Source of the DNA: Candidatus Tepidifontimicrobium thermophilum
GTDB lineage: Bacteria > Sysuimicrobiota > Sysuimicrobiia > Sysuimicrobiales > Sysuimicrobiaceae
NCBI GenBank assembly: GCA_031459915.1
Contig: JAVKHO010000001.1
Location: 25,492 to 89,491 of the forward strand
Length of the DNA: 64,000 nt
Reading direction: 5' to 3'
A program made the translations under genes and the position numbers. This document shows, piece after piece, positions 3,776 through 49,100 of this stretch (position 1 is its first letter; the number at the start of each line of letters is the position of its first letter). The notes beneath the pieces are model-generated. The model had not been told where the DNA came from. It did no database searches and worked only from the letters and a program-made list of their open reading frames with translations.

Positions 3776-5182
3776 CTACACCGCGGCCTCGGACAACGCC
3801 GCGGCACGGCGCCGCGCCCGGGCGGAGGGGATCCGCGCCATCTCCCGGTACTTGGTGACCGTCCGCCGGGCCACCGCAAACCCCTCCGCCCTCAGCCGGG
3901 CCGCCAGCTCCTCGTCCGTGAGGGGCGCTAGCGGGTCCTCGCCCGCCACCAGCTGCCGGATCCGCTCCCGCACGGGAAGGCTGCTGTCGAAGAACACCTC
4001 GAAGGGCACCACCCGGCCGTCGGGCATCTGCACGAACTTCCCGCTCAGGGCCCGGCTCACCGTGGACTCCCAGACCCCCAGAGCCTCTGCCAGGCGGCTC
4101 AGGGTCAAGGGCTTCAGGTGCGCGGGCCCGTGGTCCAAAAACCCCCGCTGGTAGCGGACCAGGTACTCCGCGCACCGCTGCAGCATCGCGTTCCTACGCC
4201 GCACTGCCTCGATGAACAGCCGGCCCTTGCGGACCTGCGCCCGTAGCCGCTCCCGCTCCTCCGAGGTCAGCTGGCCCTGCAGGAACGCCTGGCGGATCAG
4301 GGGGTGGATCCTCAGCTGCGTCACTGCAGCACCCACCAGTTCCACCCGGTATCCGTCCTCCGTCCGGTGGATGGCCACGTCCGGCACCGCCAGCTCCTCG
4401 GGCCGGACCCGGTCCCCGCCGTGGTCCATGTGGAACGCCTCCGCAGGGTAGGCGACCAGGTGCCGCCGGATGTACCGCACCGCGGCGTGCACGTCTTCCG
4501 CCCGAACCCCCAACCCCGCGGCTACCGTACCGTACTGGCCCCGGCCCAGGGCCTCCAGGTAACCCGCCACCGCGGCCCGCGCCACACGGCGCAGCGGGCA
4601 GTCCGGCAGCCGTTCCAGCTGGAGCAGCAAACATTCCCGCACGTCCCGCGCACCCACCCCAGCGGGCTCGCACGCCTGCAGGGCCTGCAGGGCGCGCTCC
4701 ACCAGGTCCAGCGGCACCCGCAGCTCTGCCGCGACGTACGCCAGGTCCACGTCCAGGTAGCCGCGGCCGTCCACGTAGCCCACCAGGTGCAGGGCCACCC
4801 GCAGGACCGCGGGGTCCCTCACGTTCACCCGCAACTGCGCTTCCAGGGAGTCCAGCAGGTTGGCGGGAGCCGCCGCCCGGTCGAGGGCAGACGGCCGCTC
4901 CTCGGGCCGTTCGTGCCCATGCCACCTGTTCGCCCAGCTCCGCCAGCCGCCGAAGGCGAACTCCCCGCACCGGCTGCAGGTCACCCCTTCCACCGGGTGC
5001 CCGCAGTGAGGGCAGGGCACCGGCACCCGCTCCAGCACGGGGTTTTCCTCCAGCTCCTGCTCTACCCGGGCCAGCAGCTCCGTCACCGTCAGGGGAAGGA
5101 TGGCGTTCACCGCGAGGATGGTCTGCAGGGTCCTCGCCTCGACCGCGGGGACGCAAACGGCACGCACCTCTGCTCCGACCAT
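3776..5182 (-). CDS. rpoN: RNA polymerase sigma-54 factor RpoN, with a Cys4 insertion in region II
   Basis: 468 aa. It has a region I Leu/Gln-rich helix and a C-terminal RpoN box (ARRTVTKYRE). ATG start with a GGAGGGGTGA RBS. It carries an unusual CPHCGHPVEGVTCSRCGEF segment. Confidence 0.9.
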   Translation of the reverse strand: MVGAEVRAVCVPAVEARTLQTILAVNAILPLTVTELLARVEQELEENPVLERVPVPCPHCGHPVEGVTCSRCGEFAFGGWRSWANRWHGHERPEERPSALDRAAAPANLLDSLEAQLRVNVRDPAVLRVALHLVGYVDGRGYLDVDLAYVAAELRVPLDLVERALQALQACEPAGVGARDVRECLLLQLERLPDCPLRRVARAAVAGYLEALGRGQYGTVAAGLGVRAEDVHAAVRYIRRHLVAYPAEAFHMDHGGDRVRPEELAVPDVAIHRTEDGYRVELVGAAVTQLRIHPLIRQAFLQGQLTSEERERLRAQVRKGRLFIEAVRRRNAMLQRCAEYLVRYQRGFLDHGPAHLKPLTLSRLAEALGVWESTVSRALSGKFVQMPDGRVVPFEVFFDSSLPVRERIRQLVAGEDPLAPLTDEELAARLRAEGFAVARRTVTKYREMARIPSARARRRAAALSEAAV

Positions 5183-9449: not shown

Positions 9450-10652
<1,203 letters not shown>

Positions 10653-23940: not shown

Positions 23941-24654
23941 CTACGCGCGCGCCACATCCGCGAGGCGCGCCGCGGTCTCGTCCGCCACCTGCACGCAGCG
24001 CGCCGCGGCCTCGTACGCCCGCAGGCCCGCGACGAGCTGCACCAGCTCCTCCACGGGGTTCACCGAGCCGCGCTGCTGGAAGCCCGGCCGCACCCGTGCC
24101 CGAACTTCCCTCAGCTCGCTTTCCGGCGCCGCGTAAACGCCTGGCCCGACCACGGAAACCGCCTGTACCGGCACGTCCACCACCCGCAGCCGGCCTGCCA
24201 CCTGTCCCTTGATTTCGACCGCGCCGTCCGGCCGGACCCGGAACTCCTGCCCGCCTACCCGGATCGGACCCTCAGCGCCCTGCACCCGTACTCCCCGGAG
24301 GGTGAGGTAGCCCTGGGCGTCCACCTCCAGCCGGCCGGAACTGGCCAGGCGCCCCCCTTCCAGCAACACGAAGCCGCGGCCGTCCACAGCCAGGTCGCGT
24401 GGATCCCCGGTGGGGACCAGAGCTCCCGAGCGCACGTCCACCGCGGCCTGAGCGGGGCCCGGCCCTGAAGCCAGCGAGCCCAGCGGTGCGGCGTTGTCCC
24501 GCCGGAACACCGCCTGGGGCTCGCCCGGCCGCACCGCCACCAGCAGCCTGTGGAAACCGTCGGTTTCGGAGTTGGCCAGGTTGTGCGCCACCAGTTCCGC
24601 CCGCAGCTGCTCCGCAGACATGGCGGAAGCTGCGGCCCGCAAGGCCCGGAGCAT
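23941..24654 (-). CDS. flgF: flagellar proximal rod protein FlgF
   Basis: 237 aa from the ATG at 24652-24654 (MLRALRAAASAM..., RBS GGGAGG). It belongs to the rod protein family. Confidence 0.85.
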   Translation of the reverse strand: MLRALRAAASAMSAEQLRAELVAHNLANSETDGFHRLLVAVRPGEPQAVFRRDNAAPLGSLASGPGPAQAAVDVRSGALVPTGDPRDLAVDGRGFVLLEGGRLASSGRLEVDAQGYLTLRGVRVQGAEGPIRVGGQEFRVRPDGAVEIKGQVAGRLRVVDVPVQAVSVVGPGVYAAPESELREVRARVRPGFQQRGSVNPVEELVQLVAGLRAYEAAARCVQVADETAARLADVARA

Positions 24655-24693
24655 GCTGACCTCCCGCGTTCCGACTTTCCCAGCCGGAGGTAC

Positions 24694-24709
24694 TTGCACA
24701 GACGGTGCC
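24694..24709 (-). promoter_or_regulatory. sigma54 promoter upstream of flgF: minus-strand GGCACCGTCTGTGCAA
   Basis: Revcomp of 24694-24709. It is nearly identical to the flgB element, GGCACCG-N4-GTGCAA. The TSS would fall about 30 nt before the flgF ATG. Confidence 0.6.
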
Positions 24710-24800
24710 GCAGTCCCGCCCAGTCGGGCGGGCGGCCGACCGCCAAAATCGGTCGCCCACCCGATGGCGCCTGGACTTCACACGCAGGTTAGGATGTCAG

Positions 24801-24817
24801 CGGACCCGTCGGGTCCG
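24801..24817. promoter_or_regulatory. 17-bp palindrome CGGACCCG-T-CGGGTCCG in the flgF/cupredoxin divergent region
   Basis: Seen directly. It lies about 95 bp upstream of the flgF sigma54 -24 element. Nearby are a second hairpin (CGACCG-ccaaaat-CGGTCG at 24737-24755), a CACGCGTG palindrome, and a GTCGG(G)AAA direct repeat. Confidence 0.3.
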
Positions 24818-24916
24818 AAAAGCCCGGCGCTCACGGAGGGGTGGGCGGCCGGGCATTTTTTCACGCGTGTAAGAAACGTCGGGAAAGTCGGAAAAACCTA
24901 CCGGGAGGTGAGCGGG

Positions 24917-25270
24917 ATGAAGAGGTGGACGAGCCTGGCCCTGACCGTGCTGGCGGTGGCTGTGGCGGTGGGTGTGGGACTCGCGGGAGCCGCGCCCGCG
25001 GTGGTCAAGGTGACCGCCAAGGAGTTCGCCTTCGAGCCCAAGGAGGTCAAGGTGAAAGCCGGTCAGCCCGTGAAGCTGGTTCTGGAAAACAAGGGCGTCA
25101 TCGAGCACGACATCGTGTTCGACAAGCTCGGCGTGAAGACCGCCACGATCCAGCCCGGCAAGACCGCGGAGCTGACCTTCACGCCCAAGGCCAAGGGGCG
25201 GTACGGGATCTACTGCAGCGTGCCCGGGCACAAGGAGGCAGGTATGACCGGGACCCTGGTGGTGGAGTGA
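24917..25270 (+). CDS. secreted cupredoxin (type-1 blue copper protein, plastocyanin/amicyanin-like)
   Basis: 117 aa from ATG 24917 (RBS GGGAGGTG). It has a signal peptide and the Cu ligands H...CSVPGHKEAGM (Cys-x2-His-x4-Met). The upstream extension in the ORF call is spurious. Confidence 0.8.
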   Translation: MKRWTSLALTVLAVAVAVGVGLAGAAPAVVKVTAKEFAFEPKEVKVKAGQPVKLVLENKGVIEHDIVFDKLGVKTATIQPGKTAELTFTPKAKGRYGIYCSVPGHKEAGMTGTLVVE

Positions 25271-25285
25271 AAGGGGGTGAGGTCC

Positions 25286-26605
25286 ATGCGGCGGCTGGCG
25301 CTTCTGGCTCTGGTGGGGGTGGTGGCGGCCGGGGTTCTGTTCGTGGGGCCTCCGGCCGCCGCGCAGACCAAGAAGTTCGAGCTGGTGGCCACCCGCAAGA
25401 CCCTCGTCGTGGACGAGGGGGTGGTGTGGCGCGCGTTCACGTTTAACGGCCGGGTACCGGGGCCGCTCCTGGTGGTGGAGGAGGGCGACGAGGTGGAGAT
25501 CACGGTACGGAACGTGGACACCATCACGCACGGGCTCTCCATCCACGCCGCCAACACGCAGACGTCGCTGGTGGTGGGCAACATCCCCGCGGGGCAGAGC
25601 CGCACCCTGCGTTTCCGCGCCGACTTCCCGGGTGTGTACATGTACCACTGCGCGCCGGGAGGCCACGGGATCCTGGCTCACACCATGGGCGGGATGTTCG
25701 GCATGGTGGTGGTGGAGCCCAAGCGTACCAAGTACCGGTTGGAGGAGGAGCTGGGCCGGGCTCCGGACCTGCGGGTCTACGTGGTGCAGCACGAGGTCTA
25801 CGCGAGCGGTAAGGACTTCTCGGACGGCCGGGCCCTGTACGTGATGTTCAACGGGTACAACTTCCGGTACGTGAACCAGCCCATCCCCGCGCGTCCCGGG
25901 GACTACGTGCGCTTCTACTACTTGAACGTGGGGCCGAACCTCGTGGGCAGCTTCCACGCGGTGGGGGCGGTCTGGGAGTACGCGTACGCGGGCGGCAATC
26001 CCAGTAACGTCACCCGCGGCCTGCAGACCACCATCGCAGCACCCACGGACTCCTGGGTCATCGAGTGGCGCGTTCCCGCGGAGGGGCCGTTCCTGCTGGT
26101 CACCCACGCGTTCGGCACCCAGGCCATGAAGGGCGCGGTGGGCGTGCTCAGTGCCAACAAGGACGCGCCCAGGGTGGGCGCGGTGCGTCCCGAGGGTCCG
26201 AACCTGCCGCTGCCGGCCAGGCCCAAACGGGTGGTCGATCCCTTCGGGGTGGGCTCCTCGGACCTGGACGTGCCCGTGCGCACGCGGCCAGGTGATGCGG
26301 TGTTCGTCCGCATGGTGGGCAACAGCTACTGGCCCAAGGTCCTGGAGGTTCCGCTGGGCACGCGGGTCACGTGGGTGAACGAGGACGTGTTCGACCTGCT
26401 GGAGGGCGAGCGCACAGGCATGCACAACGTGACGGCTCTGCGGGGCCCTACCCGGCTGGCCTCGCCGCTCCTGAAGCACGCGGACCGGTTCACCTTCCAG
26501 GCCAGCCGGACAGGCGAGTACGAGTACATCTGCGCCATCCACCCGTACATGCGGGCCCGGCTGCGGGTGTACCGTCCGGGCGCGCAGGAGCTGGCGCGTC
26601 CCTGA
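25286..26605 (+). CDS. NirK-family two-domain cupredoxin protein (copper nitrite reductase-like) with a C-terminal fused cupredoxin domain
   Basis: Signal peptide. The T1/T2 copper motifs are THGLSIHAA (His-x4-His) and YHCAPGGHGILAHTMGGM (His-Cys...His...Met). Second-domain His residues are present (FHAVGAVWEY, LLVTHAFG). The C-terminal ~100 aa carries a further T1 site, YICAIHPYM. The residue at the position of the NirK catalytic Asp98 is Ser. Confidence 0.75.
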   Translation: MRRLALLALVGVVAAGVLFVGPPAAAQTKKFELVATRKTLVVDEGVVWRAFTFNGRVPGPLLVVEEGDEVEITVRNVDTITHGLSIHAANTQTSLVVGNIPAGQSRTLRFRADFPGVYMYHCAPGGHGILAHTMGGMFGMVVVEPKRTKYRLEEELGRAPDLRVYVVQHEVYASGKDFSDGRALYVMFNGYNFRYVNQPIPARPGDYVRFYYLNVGPNLVGSFHAVGAVWEYAYAGGNPSNVTRGLQTTIAAPTDSWVIEWRVPAEGPFLLVTHAFGTQAMKGAVGVLSANKDAPRVGAVRPEGPNLPLPARPKRVVDPFGVGSSDLDVPVRTRPGDAVFVRMVGNSYWPKVLEVPLGTRVTWVNEDVFDLLEGERTGMHNVTALRGPTRLASPLLKHADRFTFQASRTGEYEYICAIHPYMRARLRVYRPGAQELARP

Positions 26606-26622
26606 CCCGCCCGGAGGGAGTG

Positions 26623-26657
26623 GCGGGGAGGGCGGTCCGCCCTCCCCGCTTTTCTCT
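26623..26657 (+). terminator. rho-independent terminator: 13-bp perfect stem GCGGGGAGGGCGG-t-CCGCCCTCCCCGC followed by TTTTCTCT
   Basis: Seen directly. It lies between the convergent NirK-like and aconitase genes. Confidence 0.6.
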
Positions 26658-26661
26658 GCGG

Positions 26662-29415
<2,754 letters not shown>

Positions 29416-32938: not shown

Positions 32939-33013
32939 CCGCCCTCGGGCCGCCGTCGGATGGTCCGCGGCTCCGCGGTCCGCTACGCTCCAGGAGGAAA
33001 GGAGGCGAGCGCG

Positions 33014-34168
33014 ATGCACCGCGTGGTGATCCTGGGAGGAGGGAGTGGCGGCGTGGTGGCGGCCAAGCGGCTGGGGGAGTGGTCCCGGCCCGGCGAGGTG
33101 GAGGTGGTCCTGGTGGACCGGAGCCCCTGGCACGAGTACCGGCCCAGCTACCTGTGGGTGATGACGGGCAAGCGCGAGCCTGACGAGGTCCGGCGCCCGC
33201 TGAAGCTTCTGGAGGCGCGGTACGGCACGAGGGTGGTGCGGGCCACCGTCACCCGCATCGACCCGGAGGCCCGGCGGGTGGACACGGACGCGGGCTCGCT
33301 GGACTACGACTTCCTGATCGTGGCTCTGGGCGCCCTGCTGCGGCAGGATCCCCGCACGGAGGGCTTCGAGGGGCCGTGGGAGCTGGAGCACGCGGTGCGG
33401 TTGCGGGAAGCGCTGAGGGAGTTCCGAGGTGGGCACGTGGTGGTGGGCCCCGTGGAGTGGCCCTACCGCTGTCCGCCCGCGCCCTTCGAGGTGGCCTTCA
33501 TGATGCGCTACCTGGCAGACCAGCGCCACGTCTCCGAACGCACCCGCATCACGGTCTTCCACCCGTGGCAGGAGCCCATGGAGACCTTCGGCCCCCTCAT
33601 GGTGGAAGGGTTCCGGGCGTTTTTGCAGCAGTTCCGGGTAGAGTTCCAGGGCGGCTTCCAGCTGGCCTCCCACGACCCCGACTCGCGCGGGCTGCGTTCT
33701 GGGGACGGCCGCGCCCTGGAGTACGACCTGGCCATCCTGATCCCGCCCCACGCGCCCCCAGAGCCCGTCCGCAACTCGCCCCTGGCCGCTGCGGGCGGTT
33801 ACATGGACGTCGTCCTCCCCAGCATGGCCTCCCCGCGGTACCCGGAGGTGTACGGGATCGGCGACGTGGTAGCGCCCACCATCGGGCTCGGCATGGCCGG
33901 CGTCTTTGCCCACTTCCAGGCGGACCACGTGGTCACCCAGATCCTGGACCGGGTCCGGGGGGCCTACCTGGGCGAGCTGTACAACATGGTGGGCGTGTGC
34001 GTGATGGACACGGGCTACATGGGCGCCGCGGTGTGGTGCGACTTCACCGACAAACTCTACGGACGCGCCCCCTACCCCGACTGCCGCCTGCTGGGGGGGA
34101 TGCGGCTGTTCCGGTCCGTGAAGGTCGGGTTCGAGCGCCTGTGGTTTGCGAGCCTGTTCGGACGGTGA
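33014..34168 (+). CDS. NAD(P)/FAD-dependent oxidoreductase, sulfide:quinone oxidoreductase-like
   Basis: 384 aa from ATG 33014 (RBS GGAGG). The N-terminal Rossmann motif is VVILGGGSGG. It resembles the SQR/FCSD flavoprotein family. Confidence 0.7.
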   Translation: MHRVVILGGGSGGVVAAKRLGEWSRPGEVEVVLVDRSPWHEYRPSYLWVMTGKREPDEVRRPLKLLEARYGTRVVRATVTRIDPEARRVDTDAGSLDYDFLIVALGALLRQDPRTEGFEGPWELEHAVRLREALREFRGGHVVVGPVEWPYRCPPAPFEVAFMMRYLADQRHVSERTRITVFHPWQEPMETFGPLMVEGFRAFLQQFRVEFQGGFQLASHDPDSRGLRSGDGRALEYDLAILIPPHAPPEPVRNSPLAAAGGYMDVVLPSMASPRYPEVYGIGDVVAPTIGLGMAGVFAHFQADHVVTQILDRVRGAYLGELYNMVGVCVMDTGYMGAAVWCDFTDKLYGRAPYPDCRLLGGMRLFRSVKVGFERLWFASLFGR

Positions 34169-34183
34169 GGAGGAGGGGACGCC

Positions 34184-34630
34184 GTGACCGAGGTGAGCGC
34201 ACGTCAACCGGACCGGGAGGCCATGGACCGGCTGCTGGCCAAGCTGGCCGAGCACGCGGACGCGGTGGAGCAGCTCCTGGACGTAGTGGGACGGCTGCAG
34301 CGCAGCGGTCTGCTGGCCGCCCTGGACGGCGTGCTGGCGGAGTTCGACGAGCAGTTCAGCGCCGCTACCCGTCCGGAGCTCATGACCCTGCTCGCCAACC
34401 TCATGATGCTCCTGGGCGCCCTGGGCCAGGTGCGGTACGAGCCCCTGTTCCGGCTGGCCCTGTACGCGGCTCAGGCCGCCAACGAGAAGCTGGCCCGGCC
34501 GCGTACCCGGCCTCTGAGCCTTGGGGAGGCCTGGCAGGTGCTCCGCAGCCCGGAGGTGGCGCAGGCGCTGGAGGTGCTGGTGGCTGCCCTGCGGGCCATG
34601 CGAGGGCCGCAGCAGGCGTCCCCCGCCTAG
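34184..34630 (+). CDS. DUF1641-like helical protein, commonly paired with SQR-type flavoproteins
   Basis: 148 aa helical protein immediately downstream of the SQR-like gene. GTG start with a GAGGAGGAGGGG RBS. The family assignment is from memory. Confidence 0.45.
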   Translation: MTEVSARQPDREAMDRLLAKLAEHADAVEQLLDVVGRLQRSGLLAALDGVLAEFDEQFSAATRPELMTLLANLMMLLGALGQVRYEPLFRLALYAAQAANEKLARPRTRPLSLGEAWQVLRSPEVAQALEVLVAALRAMRGPQQASPA

Positions 34631-34639
34631 GCCGCCGCG

Positions 34640-35131
34640 TCAGCGTGGGAGGATCTGGCCCCGGATCTCGCCGCCCGGGTGGGCGACGGTGTGCACGTTC
34701 ACGTACGCCTCGCCCACGCGGACGCGTTCCAGCAGCGCCGAAAGGGGTTGCCGGGCCAGGGGCCCGACCAGGCTGGCGGCGGTGATGACGCCAGAAGCCA
34801 GCTCGCCGTCGAACCGGCCGGGCCTGAGCTGCGGCGGCGGCGCGGACGGGTACAGCCACACCACCACGGGCCCGTTCTGCCCGGGCGGAGCCACGTGGAT
34901 GTGTGCCATCTGCACGTTCACCGCCCGCGACACTTCGAGCCGGTAGCGGATGCTGTTCCCGTCCGCCGCCACCTCGAACGTGGCCACCCCCAGCGCCGGG
35001 GTCGCCACCGTGGGGACCTGCTCCCTGCCCCACAGGTGCGCCACGAACACGTTGGCACCTTGCGCCCTGGCCGCGGCCGCAGTTCCCAGCAGCGCCGCCA
35101 GCACCGCTACCCGGACTGAGATCCGTCCCAT
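34640..35131 (-). CDS. secreted CHRD domain protein
   Basis: 163 aa from ATG 35129-35131 (RBS GGGAGG). It has a signal peptide and the CHRD signature AHIHVAPPGQNGPVVVWL. The 491-aa ORF call is an artefact. Confidence 0.75.
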   Translation of the reverse strand: MGRISVRVAVLAALLGTAAAARAQGANVFVAHLWGREQVPTVATPALGVATFEVAADGNSIRYRLEVSRAVNVQMAHIHVAPPGQNGPVVVWLYPSAPPPQLRPGRFDGELASGVITAASLVGPLARQPLSALLERVRVGEAYVNVHTVAHPGGEIRGQILPR

Positions 35132-35178
35132 GATGGCCTCCCACCGCTTCGCTACCCGTCCATGGTGGGAGGGCCCCT

Positions 35179-37479
35179 TCACGGACGTGTCACGGTTTGG
35201 CTCTCCCGGACGGCCCGCCAGATCCGCTCGGCCCGAAGGGGGGTGTCCAGGTGCCGGACCCCGAAGGGCCGCAAGGCGTCCAGCACCGCGTTCGCGAACG
35301 CCGGCGTGGCACCGATGGTCCCCGCCTCGCCCACGCCCTTGGCCCCCAGCGGGTTGGTGGGAGACGGCGTCACCGTCCGGTGCATCTCGACCGCGGGGGC
35401 GTGCGCCGCCCGCGGCACCGGATAGTCCGCCAGGGTCACCGTCAGGGGCTGGCCTGCCGCGTCGTACACCACCTCCTCCATCAGGGCCTGGCCCATCGCC
35501 TGCACGATCCCGCCCTGGATCTGACCTTCCACCAGGAGCGGGTTGACGACCACCCCGCAGTCGTCCACGCTCACGTACCGCAAGACCCGCACCTGTCCGG
35601 TCTCCGGGTCCACCTCCACCACGCACAGGTGCGCGCCGAAGGGAGCCGTGGCCTGCTCGACCACGAAGCTGCCCTCCTCGTCCAAGCCGGGGCTCAGCCC
35701 GCTGGGCAGCCGGTTGGCCTGATAGGCGGCCTCCGCCACCTCCTCCACGGTGACCGCGCGGTCCGAGCCTCGCACTGCCACCTTGCCGTCCCGCAGCTCG
35801 ACGTCCCTCGGGGAAGCCTCCAGCAGGTGGGCTGCCACCCGCAGCATCTTCCGCCGCACCTTCTCTGCGGCCCGCAGTACCGCGGAGCCGCCCACCACCA
35901 GGGTCCGGCTCCCCGCGGTCCCCATGCCGGAGGGGATCGCCAGGGTGTCCCCTGAGATCACGTGGACGCGGTCCGGCGGGATCCCCAGCCGGTCCGCCAC
36001 GATCTGCGCGAACCCCGTAGCCCCCCCTTGCCCGTGGGGCGAGGTCCCGGTGAGCACCACCGCGCTCCCGTCCGGTGCCACGCGCACGCGGGCCGTCTCC
36101 CACCCGTAGGTGCACACCTCCACGTAGCAGGACAGCCCGATCCCCAAATAGCGGCCCCGCGCCCGTTCCTCCGCCTGCCGGCGGCGCAGCTCCGCGTACC
36201 CCGCGCGGTCCAGCAGTACCCGCAACGCCCTCCGGTAGTCCCCTGTGTCGTACCGCGCGCCGGTGGGCGCCTTGTACGGGAACGCGCTTTTGGGCAGCAG
36301 GTTGCGGCGCCGCACCACGGCCGGGTCCAGTCCCAGCTCCGCGGCTACCAGGTCCATCAGTCGTTCGAGATAGAAGGTGGCCTCAGGCCGCCCGGCGCCC
36401 CGGTACGCGCCCGTGGGCGTCTTGTGCGTGTATACCTCCACGACCTCCGCCTGCACGTGCTCGATGGCGTACGGGCCGGTGAGCACCCGCACCGTCAGGG
36501 CCGGGATGTCCACGGTGGTCGACAGGGTGTAGGCACCGATGTCCGCCAACAGGTGCGCCCGGAGGGCCAGCACCCTGCCCCGGGCGTCGCAGGCCACCTC
36601 GAAGCGGCCGGTCTGGGACCGGCCCTGGGCGGTGGCCAGCAGGTTCTCCCTGCGGGTCTCCACCCACTTCACAGGCCGACGGAGCCGCCGGCTCAGGTAC
36701 GCCACCAACACCTCCTCGGGATACGTGTTCAGCTTCGCGCCGAACCCTCCGCCCACGTCCGGTGCCACCACGCGGATCTGGTTGAGCCGCAGGCCCAGGA
36801 CGTCGGCCAGCGCATCCCTCAGGTCGTGGGGGACCTGTGTGGACGACCACACGGTCAGCAGTCCCCGCGCCCCGTCCCACGAGGCCAGCACCGCGCGAGG
36901 CTCCAGGGGGATGGCGGCCACCCGCTGCTGGCGGATCGTGGCCTGCACCACCCGGTGGGCCCGCGCCAAAGCCCCGTCCGGGTCACCGGCCCGCACCTGG
37001 CGACGGTAGGCCACGTTCGTGTGCAGCTCAGGGTGCACCAGCACCCGACCTTCCAGCGCCTGCGCGGGGTCCGTGACCGCCTCCAGCGGCTCGTAGCTCA
37101 CCTCCACCGCCGCCGCGGCGTCCTCCGCCTGAGCGCGGGTGGTAGCCACCACCGCCGCAACCGGTTCCCCCACGTACCGCACCGTCCCGCGGGCCAGGAC
37201 CGGGTGCAGGGCCAGCTTGGCGCCCCGCAGGCCCTCGGCGGGGACCCCCGGTAGGTCCACGTCTTCCCCGGTGAGGACTTCCACCACCCCGGCGACCCTC
37301 TCCGCACTTCGCGTGTCGACGGTGACCACCCGGGCGTGGGCGTGGGGGCTGCGGACCAGCGCCACGTGCAGCGTGCCGTCCAACGCCACGTCTTCCACGA
37401 ACGCGCCGCGCCCCTGAAGCAGCTTGGGGTCCTCCACGCGGCGGAGCCGTCGTCCCATCCACTGCGTGCCCTCAGCCAT
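35179..37479 (-). CDS. molybdopterin-dependent hydroxylase large subunit, form II CoxL-like (xanthine dehydrogenase/aldehyde oxidase family)
   Basis: 766 aa. It has the AYRGAGR active-site loop typical of form II CODH-like enzymes. No adjacent medium (FAD) or small (2Fe-2S) subunit genes are present. Confidence 0.85.
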   Translation of the reverse strand: MAEGTQWMGRRLRRVEDPKLLQGRGAFVEDVALDGTLHVALVRSPHAHARVVTVDTRSAERVAGVVEVLTGEDVDLPGVPAEGLRGAKLALHPVLARGTVRYVGEPVAAVVATTRAQAEDAAAAVEVSYEPLEAVTDPAQALEGRVLVHPELHTNVAYRRQVRAGDPDGALARAHRVVQATIRQQRVAAIPLEPRAVLASWDGARGLLTVWSSTQVPHDLRDALADVLGLRLNQIRVVAPDVGGGFGAKLNTYPEEVLVAYLSRRLRRPVKWVETRRENLLATAQGRSQTGRFEVACDARGRVLALRAHLLADIGAYTLSTTVDIPALTVRVLTGPYAIEHVQAEVVEVYTHKTPTGAYRGAGRPEATFYLERLMDLVAAELGLDPAVVRRRNLLPKSAFPYKAPTGARYDTGDYRRALRVLLDRAGYAELRRRQAEERARGRYLGIGLSCYVEVCTYGWETARVRVAPDGSAVVLTGTSPHGQGGATGFAQIVADRLGIPPDRVHVISGDTLAIPSGMGTAGSRTLVVGGSAVLRAAEKVRRKMLRVAAHLLEASPRDVELRDGKVAVRGSDRAVTVEEVAEAAYQANRLPSGLSPGLDEEGSFVVEQATAPFGAHLCVVEVDPETGQVRVLRYVSVDDCGVVVNPLLVEGQIQGGIVQAMGQALMEEVVYDAAGQPLTVTLADYPVPRAAHAPAVEMHRTVTPSPTNPLGAKGVGEAGTIGATPAFANAVLDALRPFGVRHLDTPLRAERIWRAVRESQTVTRP

Positions 37480-47028: not shown

Positions 47029-48798
47029 CTATCCTTCCCCCTCTCCCACCCGGACGGCCCGGCGGCGGGCACGCTGGTACAGCTCCCAGATCTCGTCCAC
47101 CGTAGTGGCGTCCTCGGGCCGCTTGTCGTCCCGGTACCGTCCGGTGAAACGGGGGAAGCGCAACGCCAGCCCCGCGCCTTCCTTCACCCGGCTCCATGCC
47201 ACGGTGTGGGTGGGCGACAGGGTGATCTCCGCTCCCACCACCTCGAGCACCAGGGCCGGGTGGAACCACACGTCTGGCTCCAGCTTGGAGTCCACCCGCG
47301 GCGGCCTGCGGTCGACCTGGTAAGGGCGGAGCCGCTGGGGCAGCTGCGCCAGATCCTCGTCGGAAAACCCGCTACCCACCTTGCAGAAAGTCCGGAAGGT
47401 GTCCTCGGACGGGTCGTAGGCCGCCACCAGCAGGGCCCCGTACGTCCCGCTGCGGCGGCCGCGTCCGTAGAAGGCCCCCACCACCACCAGGTCCAGGGTG
47501 TCCTGAAGCTCGGTGCGGTACTCCCTCTTGTGCTTGATCCACAGCCAGCCGCGGGCGCCGGCCTGGTAGACGGCGTCCTCGGCCACCGACTTGCACAGAA
47601 CCCCCTCACAGCCGTCCGCCACGGCCTGCTCGAAGAACGCGTCCAGCTCCTCCACACTGCGCACCAGCTTCCAGGTGGCCAGCTGCAGCCGGTCCCCGGG
47701 CTTGATAGCCCGCTCCAGGGCCCGTCGCCGCTCCAGGTACGGCCGACGGGTCAGGTCGCCCCCCTCTCCGTACAGCAGGTCGAAACAGAACAGGCCCACC
47801 GGGATGCGCCTTGCCGCCTCCTCGATCCCGTACTTGCGGCGCCGCTGCATGAGTTCCTGGAACGGCCGCAGCTCTCCGGACTCGGGGTCCACGGCCACGA
47901 TCTCCGCCTCCAGGATGGCCCGCTTGGGTCGCAGCCCGTGCTGCAGCAACTCCACCGCGTCCGGGAACTGCTCCGTGATGTTCTCCAGGCGCCGCGAGAA
48001 CAGCACCACCTTCCCGTCCAGGCGGTGGGCCTGCACCCGCTCGCCGTCGTACTTGTACTCCGCGGCGCACACCCCGCCCAGCTTTGCCAGGATCTCCTCG
48101 CCGGTGGCCAGCCGCTGCGCCAGCATGGGCCGCACCGGGTGGCCGGGACGGACCTCCATGGCCTCCACCGCCGCCACCCCGCCGCGCACCAGGGTATCGG
48201 CCACCAGCCCCAGGTCCGAGCAGATGTTGTACGCTCGCTCCAAAGGCGCCCGGTTGGCCCGGCCTCCCGCGTACACCTCCGCCAGGGCGTCCAGGATGGA
48301 GGCATCCCCGACGCCCAACCGCAGCTTGCCCGTGACCGTGCGGACCAGGTAGCGGGCCTCCAGCGGCGTGGCGCGGCGCAGGAGGTCGGCCAGGGAGGAG
48401 ATCTTCTGGGTCTGGGCCCCCTTGCCGGATGCCTGGGCGATGGCCTCGAGATGGTCGAACACCTCCTGCACGGTCAGGTGGGACCGGCGGGCCCCTCTTT
48501 CGGCCAGCAGCTCCTCCGCCACCGTGCCCAGGTCGCCTCGGCGCCGCAGCAGCGACTGCACCCGGTCCTCCGCCACACCCGCGGCCTCCGCCACCGACCG
48601 GGCGGCCAGCTTCTCCGCCAGGCCGATCTCCACTCCCGCGAAGTCCGGCGCGATCTTGCCCTGACACAGGTACACCACCTTGCGCAGCAGGGGCTTGGGC
48701 GTTTCCCCGAACAGCTCCGCCAGGACCTCGATGAGCTTCAGCCGGGCAGAGGTCTCCTCGAGCCTCTGGTACGCCTGCGCCAGGCGCGTGTACTGCAT
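47029..48798 (-). CDS. ATP-dependent DNA ligase (LigB-type, archaeal/eukaryotic-like)
   Basis: 589 aa from ATG 48796-48798. The adenylation motif I is EYKYDGERVQAH. DNA-binding, adenylation and OB domains are present. The N-terminal 80 codons of the ORF call were rejected. Confidence 0.85.
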   Translation of the reverse strand: MQYTRLAQAYQRLEETSARLKLIEVLAELFGETPKPLLRKVVYLCQGKIAPDFAGVEIGLAEKLAARSVAEAAGVAEDRVQSLLRRRGDLGTVAEELLAERGARRSHLTVQEVFDHLEAIAQASGKGAQTQKISSLADLLRRATPLEARYLVRTVTGKLRLGVGDASILDALAEVYAGGRANRAPLERAYNICSDLGLVADTLVRGGVAAVEAMEVRPGHPVRPMLAQRLATGEEILAKLGGVCAAEYKYDGERVQAHRLDGKVVLFSRRLENITEQFPDAVELLQHGLRPKRAILEAEIVAVDPESGELRPFQELMQRRRKYGIEEAARRIPVGLFCFDLLYGEGGDLTRRPYLERRRALERAIKPGDRLQLATWKLVRSVEELDAFFEQAVADGCEGVLCKSVAEDAVYQAGARGWLWIKHKREYRTELQDTLDLVVVGAFYGRGRRSGTYGALLVAAYDPSEDTFRTFCKVGSGFSDEDLAQLPQRLRPYQVDRRPPRVDSKLEPDVWFHPALVLEVVGAEITLSPTHTVAWSRVKEGAGLALRFPRFTGRYRDDKRPEDATTVDEIWELYQRARRRAVRVGEGEG

Positions 48799-48809
48799 CG
48801 GACCGGCTC

Positions 48810-49010
48810 CTACTCCCTGGATCGCAAGAGCTCCGCCACCGGACGCCCCAGCAGCAGCCGTCCCAGCTTGCGGTGGCCGATCTTCAGGTAGTGGCGGCGC
48901 CACACCTCCACCACCTCCTCCTTGGTCCGAGCCGCGTCGAGCTCCTGCTTGACCTGCTCGAGGTACCGACGCTCCTCGTCGGGGTCTGCGAACACCGGTT
49001 CCCTTGCCAT
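48810..49010 (-). CDS. small hypothetical protein upstream of, and co-oriented with, the DNA ligase
   Basis: 66 aa from ATG 49008-49010 with a strong GAGGAGG RBS. It stops 11 nt before the ligase start. No family recognised. Confidence 0.4.
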   Translation of the reverse strand: MAREPVFADPDEERRYLEQVKQELDAARTKEEVVEVWRRHYLKIGHRKLGRLLLGRPVAELLRSRE

Positions 49011-49100
49011 GGGTGACCTCCTCAGACCGGACTCCCACCCGGGCTTCGACGGTTCTGCGGAGCGCTCCTCGGTCGTCCGGAGGCCCGCCACCGCCGTATC

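Follow-up and report, generated by a model that had tools for sequence, protein, structure and literature searches.

Does a NirK-fold protein that carries serine at the usual catalytic-Asp position, and that has an extra cupredoxin fused to its C terminus, reduce nitrite, and is the small cupredoxin encoded directly ahead of it the electron donor? This question is raised by a gene pair in the window (that is, the whole 64-kb stretch of DNA analysed), whose source lineage is represented by hot-spring metagenome-assembled genomes (MAGs) of Candidatus Sysuimicrobiota (CSP1-3). Within this lineage nirK, norB, nosZ and narG were reported in Sysuimicrobiaceae, which has been called the denitrifying family of Sysuimicrobiota (PMC11604079). 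The best explanation of the pair, to which a probability of roughly 0.8 is assigned, is an operon of two genes with which a thermophilic Sysuimicrobiaceae bacterium reduces nitrite to NO in the periplasm, the cupredoxin feeding in the electrons.

A conserved two-gene unit for secreted copper proteins

The unit consists of the following features, all on the forward strand.

24904..24910, +, ribosome-binding site of the cupredoxin gene (GGAGGTG), 6 nt before ATG 24917
24917..25270, +, cupredoxin gene (117 aa; ATG 24917, TGA 25268-25270), encoding a secreted type-1 copper protein
25271..25282, +, nirK ribosome-binding site (AAGGGGGTGAGG), within the 15-nt intergenic gap
25286..26605, +, nirK gene (439 aa; ATG 25286, stop 26603-26605), encoding a predicted TsNirK-type three-domain copper nitrite reductase
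25286..25363, +, nirK signal peptide (aa 1-26; MRRLALLALVGVVAAGVLFVGPPAAA, cleaved before Q), Sec-type by inspection
26622..26657, +, intrinsic-terminator-like hairpin plus T tract, closing the two-gene unit

The open reading frames confirmed what the sequence-only reading had described, namely a secreted 117-aa cupredoxin, a gap of 15 nt and a 439-aa secreted NirK-like protein. Each gene has its own ribosome-binding site and one terminator is shared after the pair. The terminator, which had likewise been proposed, is formed by a hairpin at 26622-26650 (13 pairs, 11 of them G-C) followed by TTTTCT, and is separated by 12 nt from the stop codon of the aconitase gene (26662-29415), which converges on the pair from the minus strand. 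The start of nirK is the ATG picked by gene callers on six MAG contigs; an alternative in-frame GTG at 25277 sits within the ribosome-binding site. By inspection, the N-termini of both proteins are Sec-type signal peptides. A Tat signal for NirK was considered and rejected, as the arginine pair (residues 2-3) is not kept across 120 relatives, where Sec and lipoprotein signals are found.

The cupredoxin and nirK are genuine conserved genes rather than chance open reading frames: the GC3 of the pair is 0.92 and identical proteins were found on 17 contigs. Both GC and GC3 match the rest of the window, so that composition is uninformative on horizontal transfer, and a claim of such transfer depends on the published phylogeny (PMC11604079). 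In the window the pair is surrounded by flagellar genes and aconitase. Genes of the nor, nar or nos type were not found within the 64 kb (Pfam on 20 further open reading frames), which counts against the preferred reading, nor were copper-chaperone genes (Pfam, and tblastn with the Sco1, PCuAC, VKOR and CopC of relative locus L089).

A TsNirK-type protein with serine at the catalytic position

Three domains were delineated in NirK (residues in 439-aa numbering throughout).

25364..25717, +, domain I (aa ~27-144), with the core T1CuN site, two T2Cu ligands and the sensing loop
25769..26152, +, domain II (aa ~162-289), with HisCAT His224, ValCAT Val226, Gln247/Thr248 and His274
26228..26581, +, domain III (aa 315-432), a C-terminal amicyanin-like cupredoxin

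The NirK-type copper ligands listed in the sequence-only reading are all present: His82-x4-His87, His121-Cys122...His132...Met137, and the domain-II residues His224 and His274. In domain I, the T1CuN site is made of His82, Cys122, His132 and Met137 (codon 25694-25696) and the T2Cu ligands are His87 and His121, with the sensing loop reading H82-G-L-S85-I-H87 (Ser85 codon 25538-25540); these residues map onto His75, Ser78, His80, His114, Cys115, His125 and Gln130 of TsNirK, the enzyme of Thermus scotoductus SA-01. Domain II gives His274 as a T2Cu ligand to the adjacent subunit, and His87, His121, His274 and His224 are invariant in a 30-sequence alignment (alignment A1). The extra C-terminal cupredoxin also stood up, with its CAIHPYM motif at residues 416-422 and the T1CuC ligands His380, Cys416, His419 and Met422; the amicyanin model TIGR02657 matches this domain at aa 356-429 of a 442-aa form (E 2.8e-10), and Glu375 is the counterpart of TsNirK Glu385 on the path from T1CuC to T1CuN. 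Thus the three-domain architecture, suggested earlier as a class III-like NirK with a built-in donor domain, was confirmed. The same is true of the replacement of Asp98 by serine, as Ser85 falls in the column of residue 98 of Geobacillus NiR (D in wild type 3wia, N in the D98N mutants 9kws/9kwt) and there is no Asp at this position.

The best solved relative of NirK is TsNirK itself (PDB 6HBE; phmmer E 1.3e-163 over residues 13-437), with which it shares 57% identity over 448 aligned columns (BLASTP) and every copper-ligand position. An AF2 model of NirK (pLDDT 86.8) likewise returned 6hbe as the first-ranked Foldseek match (TM 0.84-0.86 over 428 columns). Common to the two proteins are a signal peptide, NirK domains I and II, a linker and the C-terminal amicyanin-like cupredoxin, together with the H-G-L-S-I-H loop and its SerCAT, the T2Cu histidines, HisCAT, ValCAT, the Gln-Thr pair and the Glu on the inter-copper path. 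They differ in the axial ligand of the core T1Cu (Met137 in NirK, Gln130 in TsNirK), in the domain II-III linker, which is ~17 residues shorter in NirK, and in context: NirK has a cupredoxin partner and is without adjacent nar/nir genes, whereas the Thermus gene lies in a nar/nir region, with Rrf2, radical-SAM, cytochrome c and narCGH as neighbours.

TsNirK carries 3.2 Cu per monomer and reduces nitrite (kcat 65 s-1, Km 27 µM, catalytic efficiency 2.4e6 M-1 s-1), re-oxidising pseudoazurin when nitrite is present, although it turns over ~7-12x more slowly than classical NirKs, and an 'alternative nitrite-reduction mechanism' was proposed for it (Opperman et al. 2019, PMC6400189). In the literature searched, nothing on TsNirK or SerCAT was found beyond that 2019 paper. 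The sequence-only reading had implied that losing Asp is unusual or could hint at another substrate, and had set robust nitrite reductase activity in advance as the observation that would tell against it; such activity is found in TsNirK, which has the identical loop. Since serine and a C-terminal cupredoxin together are the signature of the TsNirK clade (6HBE; PMC6400189), whose crystallised member is active, the idea that the loss of Asp is unusual or indicates another substrate is not supported. The protein is an ordinary member of a family already crystallised and assayed, in which neither the serine nor the fused domain is new. The analysis established sequence, fold, linkage of the genes and conservation of the ligands. 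For NirK itself, the predicted nitrite reductase activity, trimer and copper distances are drawn by analogy from TsNirK as the only experimental source, and the analogy likens a Met-axial member to a Gln-axial one, the latter being the one with known kinetics.

Across the family, of which a relative occurs in at least 246 GTDB species, serine occupies the AspCAT position in 120 of 120 database relatives, and serine plus the C-terminal HCHM site are found together in each of the 89 three-domain loci examined, the most distant having 47% identity; a two-domain NirK (locus L092) has Asp at the catalytic position. The Gln axial ligand of the core type-1 copper was highlighted as unique in TsNirK (PMC6400189). 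However, it does not define the clade, as the axial residue is Met in 72 and Gln in 48 of the 120 relatives. Four-domain relatives were also sought, and the C-terminal tails of the 546-578-aa members proved to be low-complexity or membrane-anchor sequence with no added copper domains. Against TIGR02376, the NCBIfam NirK equivalog, NirK scores 155.9 bits (cutoff 296.3); the assayed TsNirK reaches only 144.5 bits, thus the cutoff shuts out the whole clade.

Other NirK-type enzymes resemble the protein in part. The cupredoxin-cupredoxin core is common to classical two-domain NirKs (AcNiR, AxNiR and Geobacillus GtNiR, the last with ~34% identity and TM 0.78-0.84 on target), as are the His2-Cys-Met T1Cu, the Cys-His bridge, the interface T2Cu with three histidines and HisCAT; the differences from these are the serine in place of AspCAT and the added C-terminal copper domain. 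A redox partner tethered to a NirK core is also found in RpNiR (3ziy) and PhNiR (2zoo), which are C-terminal cytochrome c fusions, and in the four-domain Br NirK (6the), but there the tethered domain is a haem c, joined by a cupredoxin in Br NirK, AspCAT is kept and identity is ~28%. In the HdNiR type (Hyphomicrobium denitrificans 2dv6; also 6tfd), the NirK core receives electrons from an additional type-1 copper cupredoxin, as is proposed here; however, that cupredoxin is fused N-terminally and AspCAT is kept, while here its counterpart has a gene of its own and the domain that is fused sits at the C terminus. Between the two cores the match reaches E 6e-36 only.

The upstream cupredoxin and competing explanations

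The type-1 copper ligands of the 117-aa cupredoxin are His64, Cys100, His105 and Met110, the first three being present in all 120 homologues and Met110 in 119. Its Pfam matches are PF13473 Cupredoxin_1 (64.1 bits; cutoff 27) and PF00127 Copper-bind (48.2 bits; cutoff 21.2). The closest solved relatives are the tethered N-terminal domains of the HdNiR-type NirKs 2dv6 and 6tfd (E 8e-13 and 1.3e-12), with the H...C-x4-H-x4-M ligands aligned to those of the HdNiR N-terminal domain. In all five diverged Sysuimicrobiota loci (among them L007, L008, L009 and L089), the gene immediately ahead of nirK is an orthologue of this cupredoxin despite rearranged upstream flanks, and it is only in Sysuimicrobiota that such orthologues adjoin nirK. 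The cupredoxin is probably the periplasmic electron donor to the nitrite reductase. As for the dedicated partner claimed in the sequence-only reading, the co-oriented gene 15 nt upstream stands, while its dedication is plausible and would be specific to Sysuimicrobiota.

By homology to TsNirK, NirK would be homotrimeric, each subunit binding three coppers. The entry point for electrons would be the C-terminal type-1 copper (His380/Cys416/His419/Met422), which would lie near the surface. From there they would hop ~14 Å to the core type-1 copper (His82/Cys122/His132/Met137) and be passed on, by way of the bridge between Cys122 and His121, to the type-2 copper, which would be held by His87 and His121 together with His274 of the neighbouring subunit; it is at this copper that nitrite would be converted to NO. 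Protons would come from Ser85, His224 and a water network (Gln247/Thr248), with Ser85 representing the normal state of the clade and no defect. Most likely, the separately exported cupredoxin would pick up electrons from the respiratory chain and hand them to domain III, so that the two proteins would form a relay of three type-1 coppers. In vivo, the pair would thereby take part in denitrification.

The invariant serine could instead mark a different chemistry, in which the NirK fold serves a physiological reaction other than nitrite reduction (for example, oxidation of a nitrogen intermediate or redox of another small molecule) and the cupredoxin is either acceptor or donor. This is very unlikely, even though the proton-donating Asp is replaced in every member, TsNirK lags behind classical NirKs in rate and would, in the view of Opperman et al., work by another mechanism, and family members are spread over many organisms and settings in which no denitrification genes are obvious nearby. 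An attempt to assign the Rrf2 and CRP/FNR neighbours of family members to NsrR or Dnr gave superfamily-level matches only. Against the idea, TsNirK does reduce nitrite at the catalytic efficiency given above, and the Thermus homologue is located in a region for nitrate/nitrite respiration. A precedent for other chemistry is Nmar_1354 (PDB 9CCK), an archaeal two-domain multicopper oxidase that turns hydroxylamine into nitroxyl and is the third-ranked fold match to NirK, with a trimeric cupredoxin-fold core and a 'dangling' C-terminal T1Cu domain; however, it is only 22% identical (TM 0.55), reduces O2 and has a trinuclear T2/T3 cluster, whose H-x-H ligands are missing in NirK. The same feature bears on a copper-homeostasis module, made of a CopI-like periplasmic cupredoxin and a Cu(I)-detoxifying multicopper oxidase, which is highly improbable: no H-x-H motif for a trinuclear cluster was seen on inspection of the NirK sequence, the T2 site is mononuclear (H-x4-H, H-C-A) and the bridge is H121-C122-A123 in place of the His-Cys-His triad that serves such a cluster. 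CopI (NF051440) is the top NCBIfam match of the cupredoxin (E 1.5e-17), but this assignment was rejected at 64 bits against a cutoff of 280, the best stretch being the C-terminal 40 residues around a generic type-1 site, and the CopA model gives 36 bits (cutoff 479) and the CueO model 23 bits (cutoff 525). The NCBI name of the family, 'multicopper oxidase domain-containing protein', fits such a module, as do the genes beside relatives (Sco1, PCuAC and CopC flanking nirK in L008 and L089, and CsoR and CueP in L094), yet copper chaperones would be equally expected near an enzyme with nine coppers per trimer. For the nitrite-reductase reading, the chaperone genes of L008 and L089, and Sco1 adjoining the family gene in 17 archaeal loci, are supporting context.

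It is also possible, though unlikely, that NirK is a nitrite reductase to which the upstream cupredoxin is no dedicated donor, being a periplasmic carrier of general use to oxidases and other enzymes or a gene co-transferred horizontally with nirK, and that the electrons reaching domain III come from a cytochrome c or straight from a complex in the membrane. Paralogues of the cupredoxin at 58-60% identity stand alone (L090) or behind a COX2-COX1-COX4-COX3 cluster for an aa3-type oxidase (L091), thus the carrier family is not NirK-specific; a cytochrome c gene rather than a cupredoxin gene is near the Thermus nirK, and an adjacent cupredoxin is missing in ~85% of family loci. On the other side, the 15-nt linkage is kept in the five diverged Sysuimicrobiota loci, pseudoazurin donates electrons to TsNirK, and non-orthologous small cupredoxins were independently recruited beside family members in other phyla (amicyanin-like in L093, pseudoazurin-like in L094, and also in L063, L064, L075 and L085).

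Upstream elements and meaning for the family

Three elements were annotated upstream of the cupredoxin gene.

24748..24765, +, palindrome ATCGG-N8-CCGAT, with the outer 5+5 bases kept in the five diverged Sysuimicrobiota loci
24790..24795, +, -10-like hexamer TAGGAT (TACAAT/TACGAT in relatives; alignment A2)
24801..24861, +, two conserved hairpins

The palindrome may be a regulator-binding site. A canonical -35 hexamer is absent at 16-18 nt from TAGGAT, and a sigma-70 consensus scan upstream of the pair gave no promoter. The first hairpin is CGGACCC-GTC-GGGTCCG (24801-24817); the second is long and rich in G+C (24822-24854), is followed by T6 at 24856-24861 and resembles a terminator, ~55 nt ahead of the start codon of the cupredoxin gene. 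A leader attenuator is one possible role; it could also be a relic terminator of the Sco1-PCuAC-VKOR-CopC operon that is present in relatives. An Rfam scan of the whole window at gathering thresholds found tRNAs only, and a permissive scan of 24600-25000 gave chance-level matches only, hence the conserved hairpins fit no known RNA family. Together, the palindrome and the terminator-like hairpin make up a conserved 130-nt element, which could represent a kind of regulatory leader, not described so far, for copper enzymes. Two bolder and independent possibilities, which are quite unlikely, are that such a leader exists here and that the invariant serine marks a chemistry or role distinct from respiratory nitrite reduction; the serine may, for example, tune proton delivery to hot or alkaline habitats, or another nitrogen oxide may be the substrate. 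If the serine did mark distinct chemistry, the relay of three type-1 coppers encoded by the Sysuimicrobiota operon would have been built for that purpose.

For the preferred reading of cupredoxin-fed nitrite reduction, the value of the finding lies mainly in annotation. As the clade falls under the NirK equivalog cutoff, pipelines label it as multicopper oxidase, and its nitrite-reducing potential is easily overlooked or taken for a dead enzyme in hot-spring, groundwater, soda-lake and archaeal genomes. The pair lends support to the published view of Sysuimicrobiaceae as denitrifiers and nominates a specific cupredoxin as candidate electron donor. Moreover, as a Met-axial variant of the Ser type, NirK would be well suited for comparison with TsNirK in work on how the enzyme is tuned by its axial ligand and by the serine.

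Gene layout and identity of the large protein

A cupredoxin gene and a nirK gene are linked in tandem on the forward strand, with the following features in and around the pair:

23941-24699, minus strand: flgF, flagellar rod gene, divergent and upstream of the pair
24917 (ATG) to 25270 (TGA), plus strand: cupredoxin ORF, 117 aa, with GGAGGTG six bases before the ATG
25286 (ATG) to 26605, plus strand: nirK ORF, 439 aa, its ATG preceded by a 15-nt spacer containing AAGGGGGTGAGG
26622-26650: hairpin of 13 pairs (11 G-C), then a T tract, 3′ of the nirK ORF
26662-29415, minus strand: aconitase gene, convergent and downstream of the pair

The ORFs, spacer and terminator were all re-found as described in the sequence-only reading, which was right in coordinates, lengths and spacing, and gene callers' starts for the identical protein on six MAG contigs agree with these ATGs.

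In Pfam the large protein (window NirK) matched only generic Cu-oxidase and cupredoxin domains. Its top NCBIfam model was the copper-containing nitrite reductase TIGR02376 (E 1.6e-45, residues 30-293), followed C-terminally by an amicyanin-like match. Among solved structures searched by phmmer, TsNirK, the NirK of Thermus scotoductus SA-01 (PDB 6HBE), was far ahead (E 1.3e-163, residues 13-437), and classical NirKs came next (~1e-47), spanning the first 295 residues only. BLASTP identity to TsNirK was 57% over 448 columns. An AlphaFold model built from a 30-sequence alignment (mean pLDDT 86.8, pTM 0.84) also retrieved 6hbe first in Foldseek (TM 0.84-0.86, 428 columns). Against an NCBIfam NirK cutoff of 296.3 bits, window NirK scored 155.9 and the assayed TsNirK 144.5; the whole TsNirK clade is below this cutoff, and its members are therefore labelled 'multicopper oxidase domain-containing protein'. 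A trinuclear-cluster oxidase was ruled out, as window NirK has no His-x-His motif and carries Ala after Cys122; it is only 22% identical to 9CCK, an archaeal oxidase with a pendant cupredoxin.

Catalytic serine and copper sites across the family

In phmmer alignments, Ser85 (H-G-L-S-I-H) shares a column with the Asp of wild-type Geobacillus NiR 3wia (H-S-M-D-F-H) and with the Asn of the deposited D98N mutants 9kws and 9kwt, and its position is thus unambiguous. This upholds the Asp-to-Ser replacement that had been put forward for checking by alignment. TsNirK has the same sensing loop (His75-Gly76-Leu77-Ser78CAT-Ile79-His80) plus a C-terminal amicyanin-like type-1 copper, with 14.1 Å between the C-terminal (T1CuC) and core (T1CuN) type-1 coppers, 12.6 Å between T1CuN and the type-2 copper (T2Cu), and 3.2 Cu per monomer; on nitrite its apparent kcat is 65 s−1 and its Km 27 µM, and it re-oxidises pseudoazurin when nitrite is present (PMC6400189). 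All residues named in that study have counterparts in window NirK:

Residues of TsNirK and their counterparts in window NirK
T1CuN ligands: His75, Cys115, His125; His82, Cys122, His132
T1CuN axial ligand: Gln130; Met137
T2Cu ligands: His80, His114, His267; His87, His121, His274
Catalytic HisCAT, ValCAT: His216, Val218; His224, Val226
Water network: Gln239, Thr240; Gln247, Thr248
T1CuC-to-T1CuN path: Glu385; Glu375
T1CuC ligand: His390 (only the neighbouring Arg389 is named in the paper); His380

The remaining T1CuC ligands of window NirK are Cys416, His419 and Met422. The sole difference among the mapped residues is the core axial ligand, Gln130 in TsNirK versus Met137 here. The sequence-only reading was correct in describing a NirK with a tethered partner and Ser for Asp, but the alternative substrate it also entertained has little support, since the protein matches a type known to be active on nitrite.

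At E ≤ 1e-10, 478 relatives were retrieved from 5.8 billion proteins. In an alignment of the best 120 of these (55-100% identity, nearly all 420-580 aa), Ser occupied the catalytic position in 120 of 120, and the His-Cys bridge and every copper histidine were invariant. As core axial ligand, 72 of the 120 have Met and 48 have Gln, so the Gln reported as unique in TsNirK is a subclade trait; at least seven members carry Gln for Met at the C-terminal site (C-x-x-H-P-Y-Q). Scanning one genome per GTDB species, at least 246 loci encoding a relative were found, in bacteria (Thermus, Trueperaceae, Chloroflexi, Acidobacteria, Fraserbacteria, Spirochaetaceae, Verrucomicrobia, Bacteroidetes and Crenothrix) and archaea (Aigarchaeota/Caldarchaeum and Sulfolobales/Desulfurococcales). 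Ser and a complete C-terminal His-Cys-His-Met site occurred together in all 89 three-domain loci examined (down to 47% identity), whereas the lone two-domain NirK of that set (L092) has Asp. Ser and the C-terminal cupredoxin are therefore inherited together and characterise a single established clade.

The small cupredoxin and the flanks of the pair

The small cupredoxin scored above the Pfam cutoffs for Cupredoxin_1 and Copper-bind, and its His64, Cys100, His105 and Met110 are invariant or nearly so across 120 homologues. Among solved structures it is closest not to free cupredoxins but to the NirK-tethered N-terminal cupredoxin domains of the Hyphomicrobium type (2dv6, 6tfd; E ~1e-12). A match to CopI fell far under cutoff, covered the copper site alone and was rejected. 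In every diverged Sysuimicrobiota locus (L007, L008, L009 and L089), the gene directly upstream of nirK encodes an orthologue (69-83% identity); paralogues, which are more distant (58-60%), are solitary or follow an aa3-type oxidase cluster. In other phyla, the small cupredoxins that adjoin family members are non-orthologous: L093 has one of amicyanin-like type downstream, L094 (Spirochaeta dissipatitropha) has one of pseudoazurin-like type 43 nt upstream, and L063, L064, L075 and L085 have others; the two-domain NirK of L092 also has one alongside. No cupredoxin adjoins the gene in about 85% of family loci. Because cupredoxin neighbours recur across phyla and TsNirK oxidises pseudoazurin, the small cupredoxin is best read as the probable donor to window NirK.

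Aconitase follows the pair in every Sysuimicrobiota locus compared, and flgF flanks it upstream in the window and in Bacterium HR32. Five diverged Sysuimicrobiota loci share a conserved stretch of about 130 nt ahead of the cupredoxin gene:

Window: 24745-24875
L007: ~1420-1550
L008: ~9480-9600
L009: ~520-650
L089: ~4860-4980

This element comprises a palindrome (ATCGG-N8-CCGAT), a −10-like TACAAT/TAGGAT, a GGACCC/GGGTCC hairpin and, ~55 nt ahead of the start codon, a long G+C hairpin with a trailing T-run. Compensatory change was seen at one base pair only, and Rfam gave no match. The element may act as a leader attenuator or as an operator of the cupredoxin-nirK pair; alternatively, it could be the retained terminator of the co-oriented Sco1-PCuAC (PF04314)-VKOR-CopC operon that precedes it in L008 (6632-9482) and L089 (2012-4859), in place of the flagellar genes of the window, from which that operon is absent. 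With the aconitase side fixed, a rearrangement breakpoint between these two loci and the window falls exactly at the element.

Among relatives, a Sco1/SenC gene lies against the 3′ end of the TsNirK-type gene, abutting or overlapping it, in 17 loci of Aigarchaeota, Caldarchaeum and Nitrososphaerota (L022, L024, L027, L028, L031-L034, L036, L037, L040-L044, L056 and L065) and overlaps it in a further Aigarchaeota contig (L095), which suggests a conserved maturation partner. Rrf2-family and CRP/FNR-family regulators lie near the family gene in Thermus, L093 and L094 (an assignment to NsrR or Dnr was sought for them and not reached), and in Thermus nirK adjoins narCGH. These neighbours fit, rather than prove, a copper-demanding enzyme under anaerobiosis or NO control.

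Proposed electron path and the host lineage

Judging from their signal peptides, both proteins would be exported by Sec; signals among the relatives are of Sec or lipoprotein type. The respiratory chain would reduce the small cupredoxin, which may dock at domain III of window NirK, and electrons would pass from T1CuC to T1CuN and via Cys122-His121 to T2Cu, where nitrite would be protonated via Ser85, water and His224 and NO released. Ligands, fold and gene linkage come from the present analysis; the activity, trimer and copper distances assumed here are carried over from TsNirK alone; we infer the donor and the physiological role of the pair.

Identical NirK proteins occur on contigs of MAGs including GCA_031460165.1 and GCA_031458555.1, and the closest match among species representatives is that of Candidatus Sysuimicrobium calidum (92%), ahead of Bacterium HR32 (88%) and a Candidatus Sysuimicrobiota bacterium (85%). 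The 64-kb window holds no further nitrogen-cycle genes besides the pair. Its other contents include:

1-24700, minus strand: large flagellar, chemotaxis and sigma-54 cluster, including FliG, FliF, RpoN, a sigma-54 activator, an HD-domain protein, CheW, MCP, FliD, two flagellins, CsrA-FliW, FlgK/L, FlgN/M, and L- and P-ring FlgH and FlgI
32960-34168, plus strand: sulfide:quinone-oxidoreductase-like flavoprotein (Pyr_redox_2, weak FCSD_central match)
34640-35131, minus strand: CHRD-domain protein (coordinates inferred from database loci L001/L002, not from reading the window)
35179-37479, minus strand: 766-aa molybdopterin-binding subunit, xanthine/CO dehydrogenase family
47029-49038, minus strand: 669-aa ATP-dependent DNA ligase with all three Lig1-type domains (DNA_ligase_A_N, _M, _C), an archaeal/eukaryotic-style architecture in a bacterial genome

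The presence of the ring proteins FlgH and FlgI implies that this phylum (NCBI kingdom Bacillati) has an outer membrane, and the trio at 32960-37479 resembles energy-metabolism genes.

The genus is placed in Candidatus Sysuimicrobiaceae, for which nirK, norB, nosZ and narG/nxrA were already reported; the phylum description also notes flagellar and chemotaxis genes, restricts denitrification within the phylum to this family and regards its nirK as horizontally acquired (PMC11604079). The window is in line with this account. It adds modestly to what is known: a Met-axial member of the TsNirK type, found in an uncultivated phylum of thermophiles and partnered by a lineage-specific cupredoxin gene.
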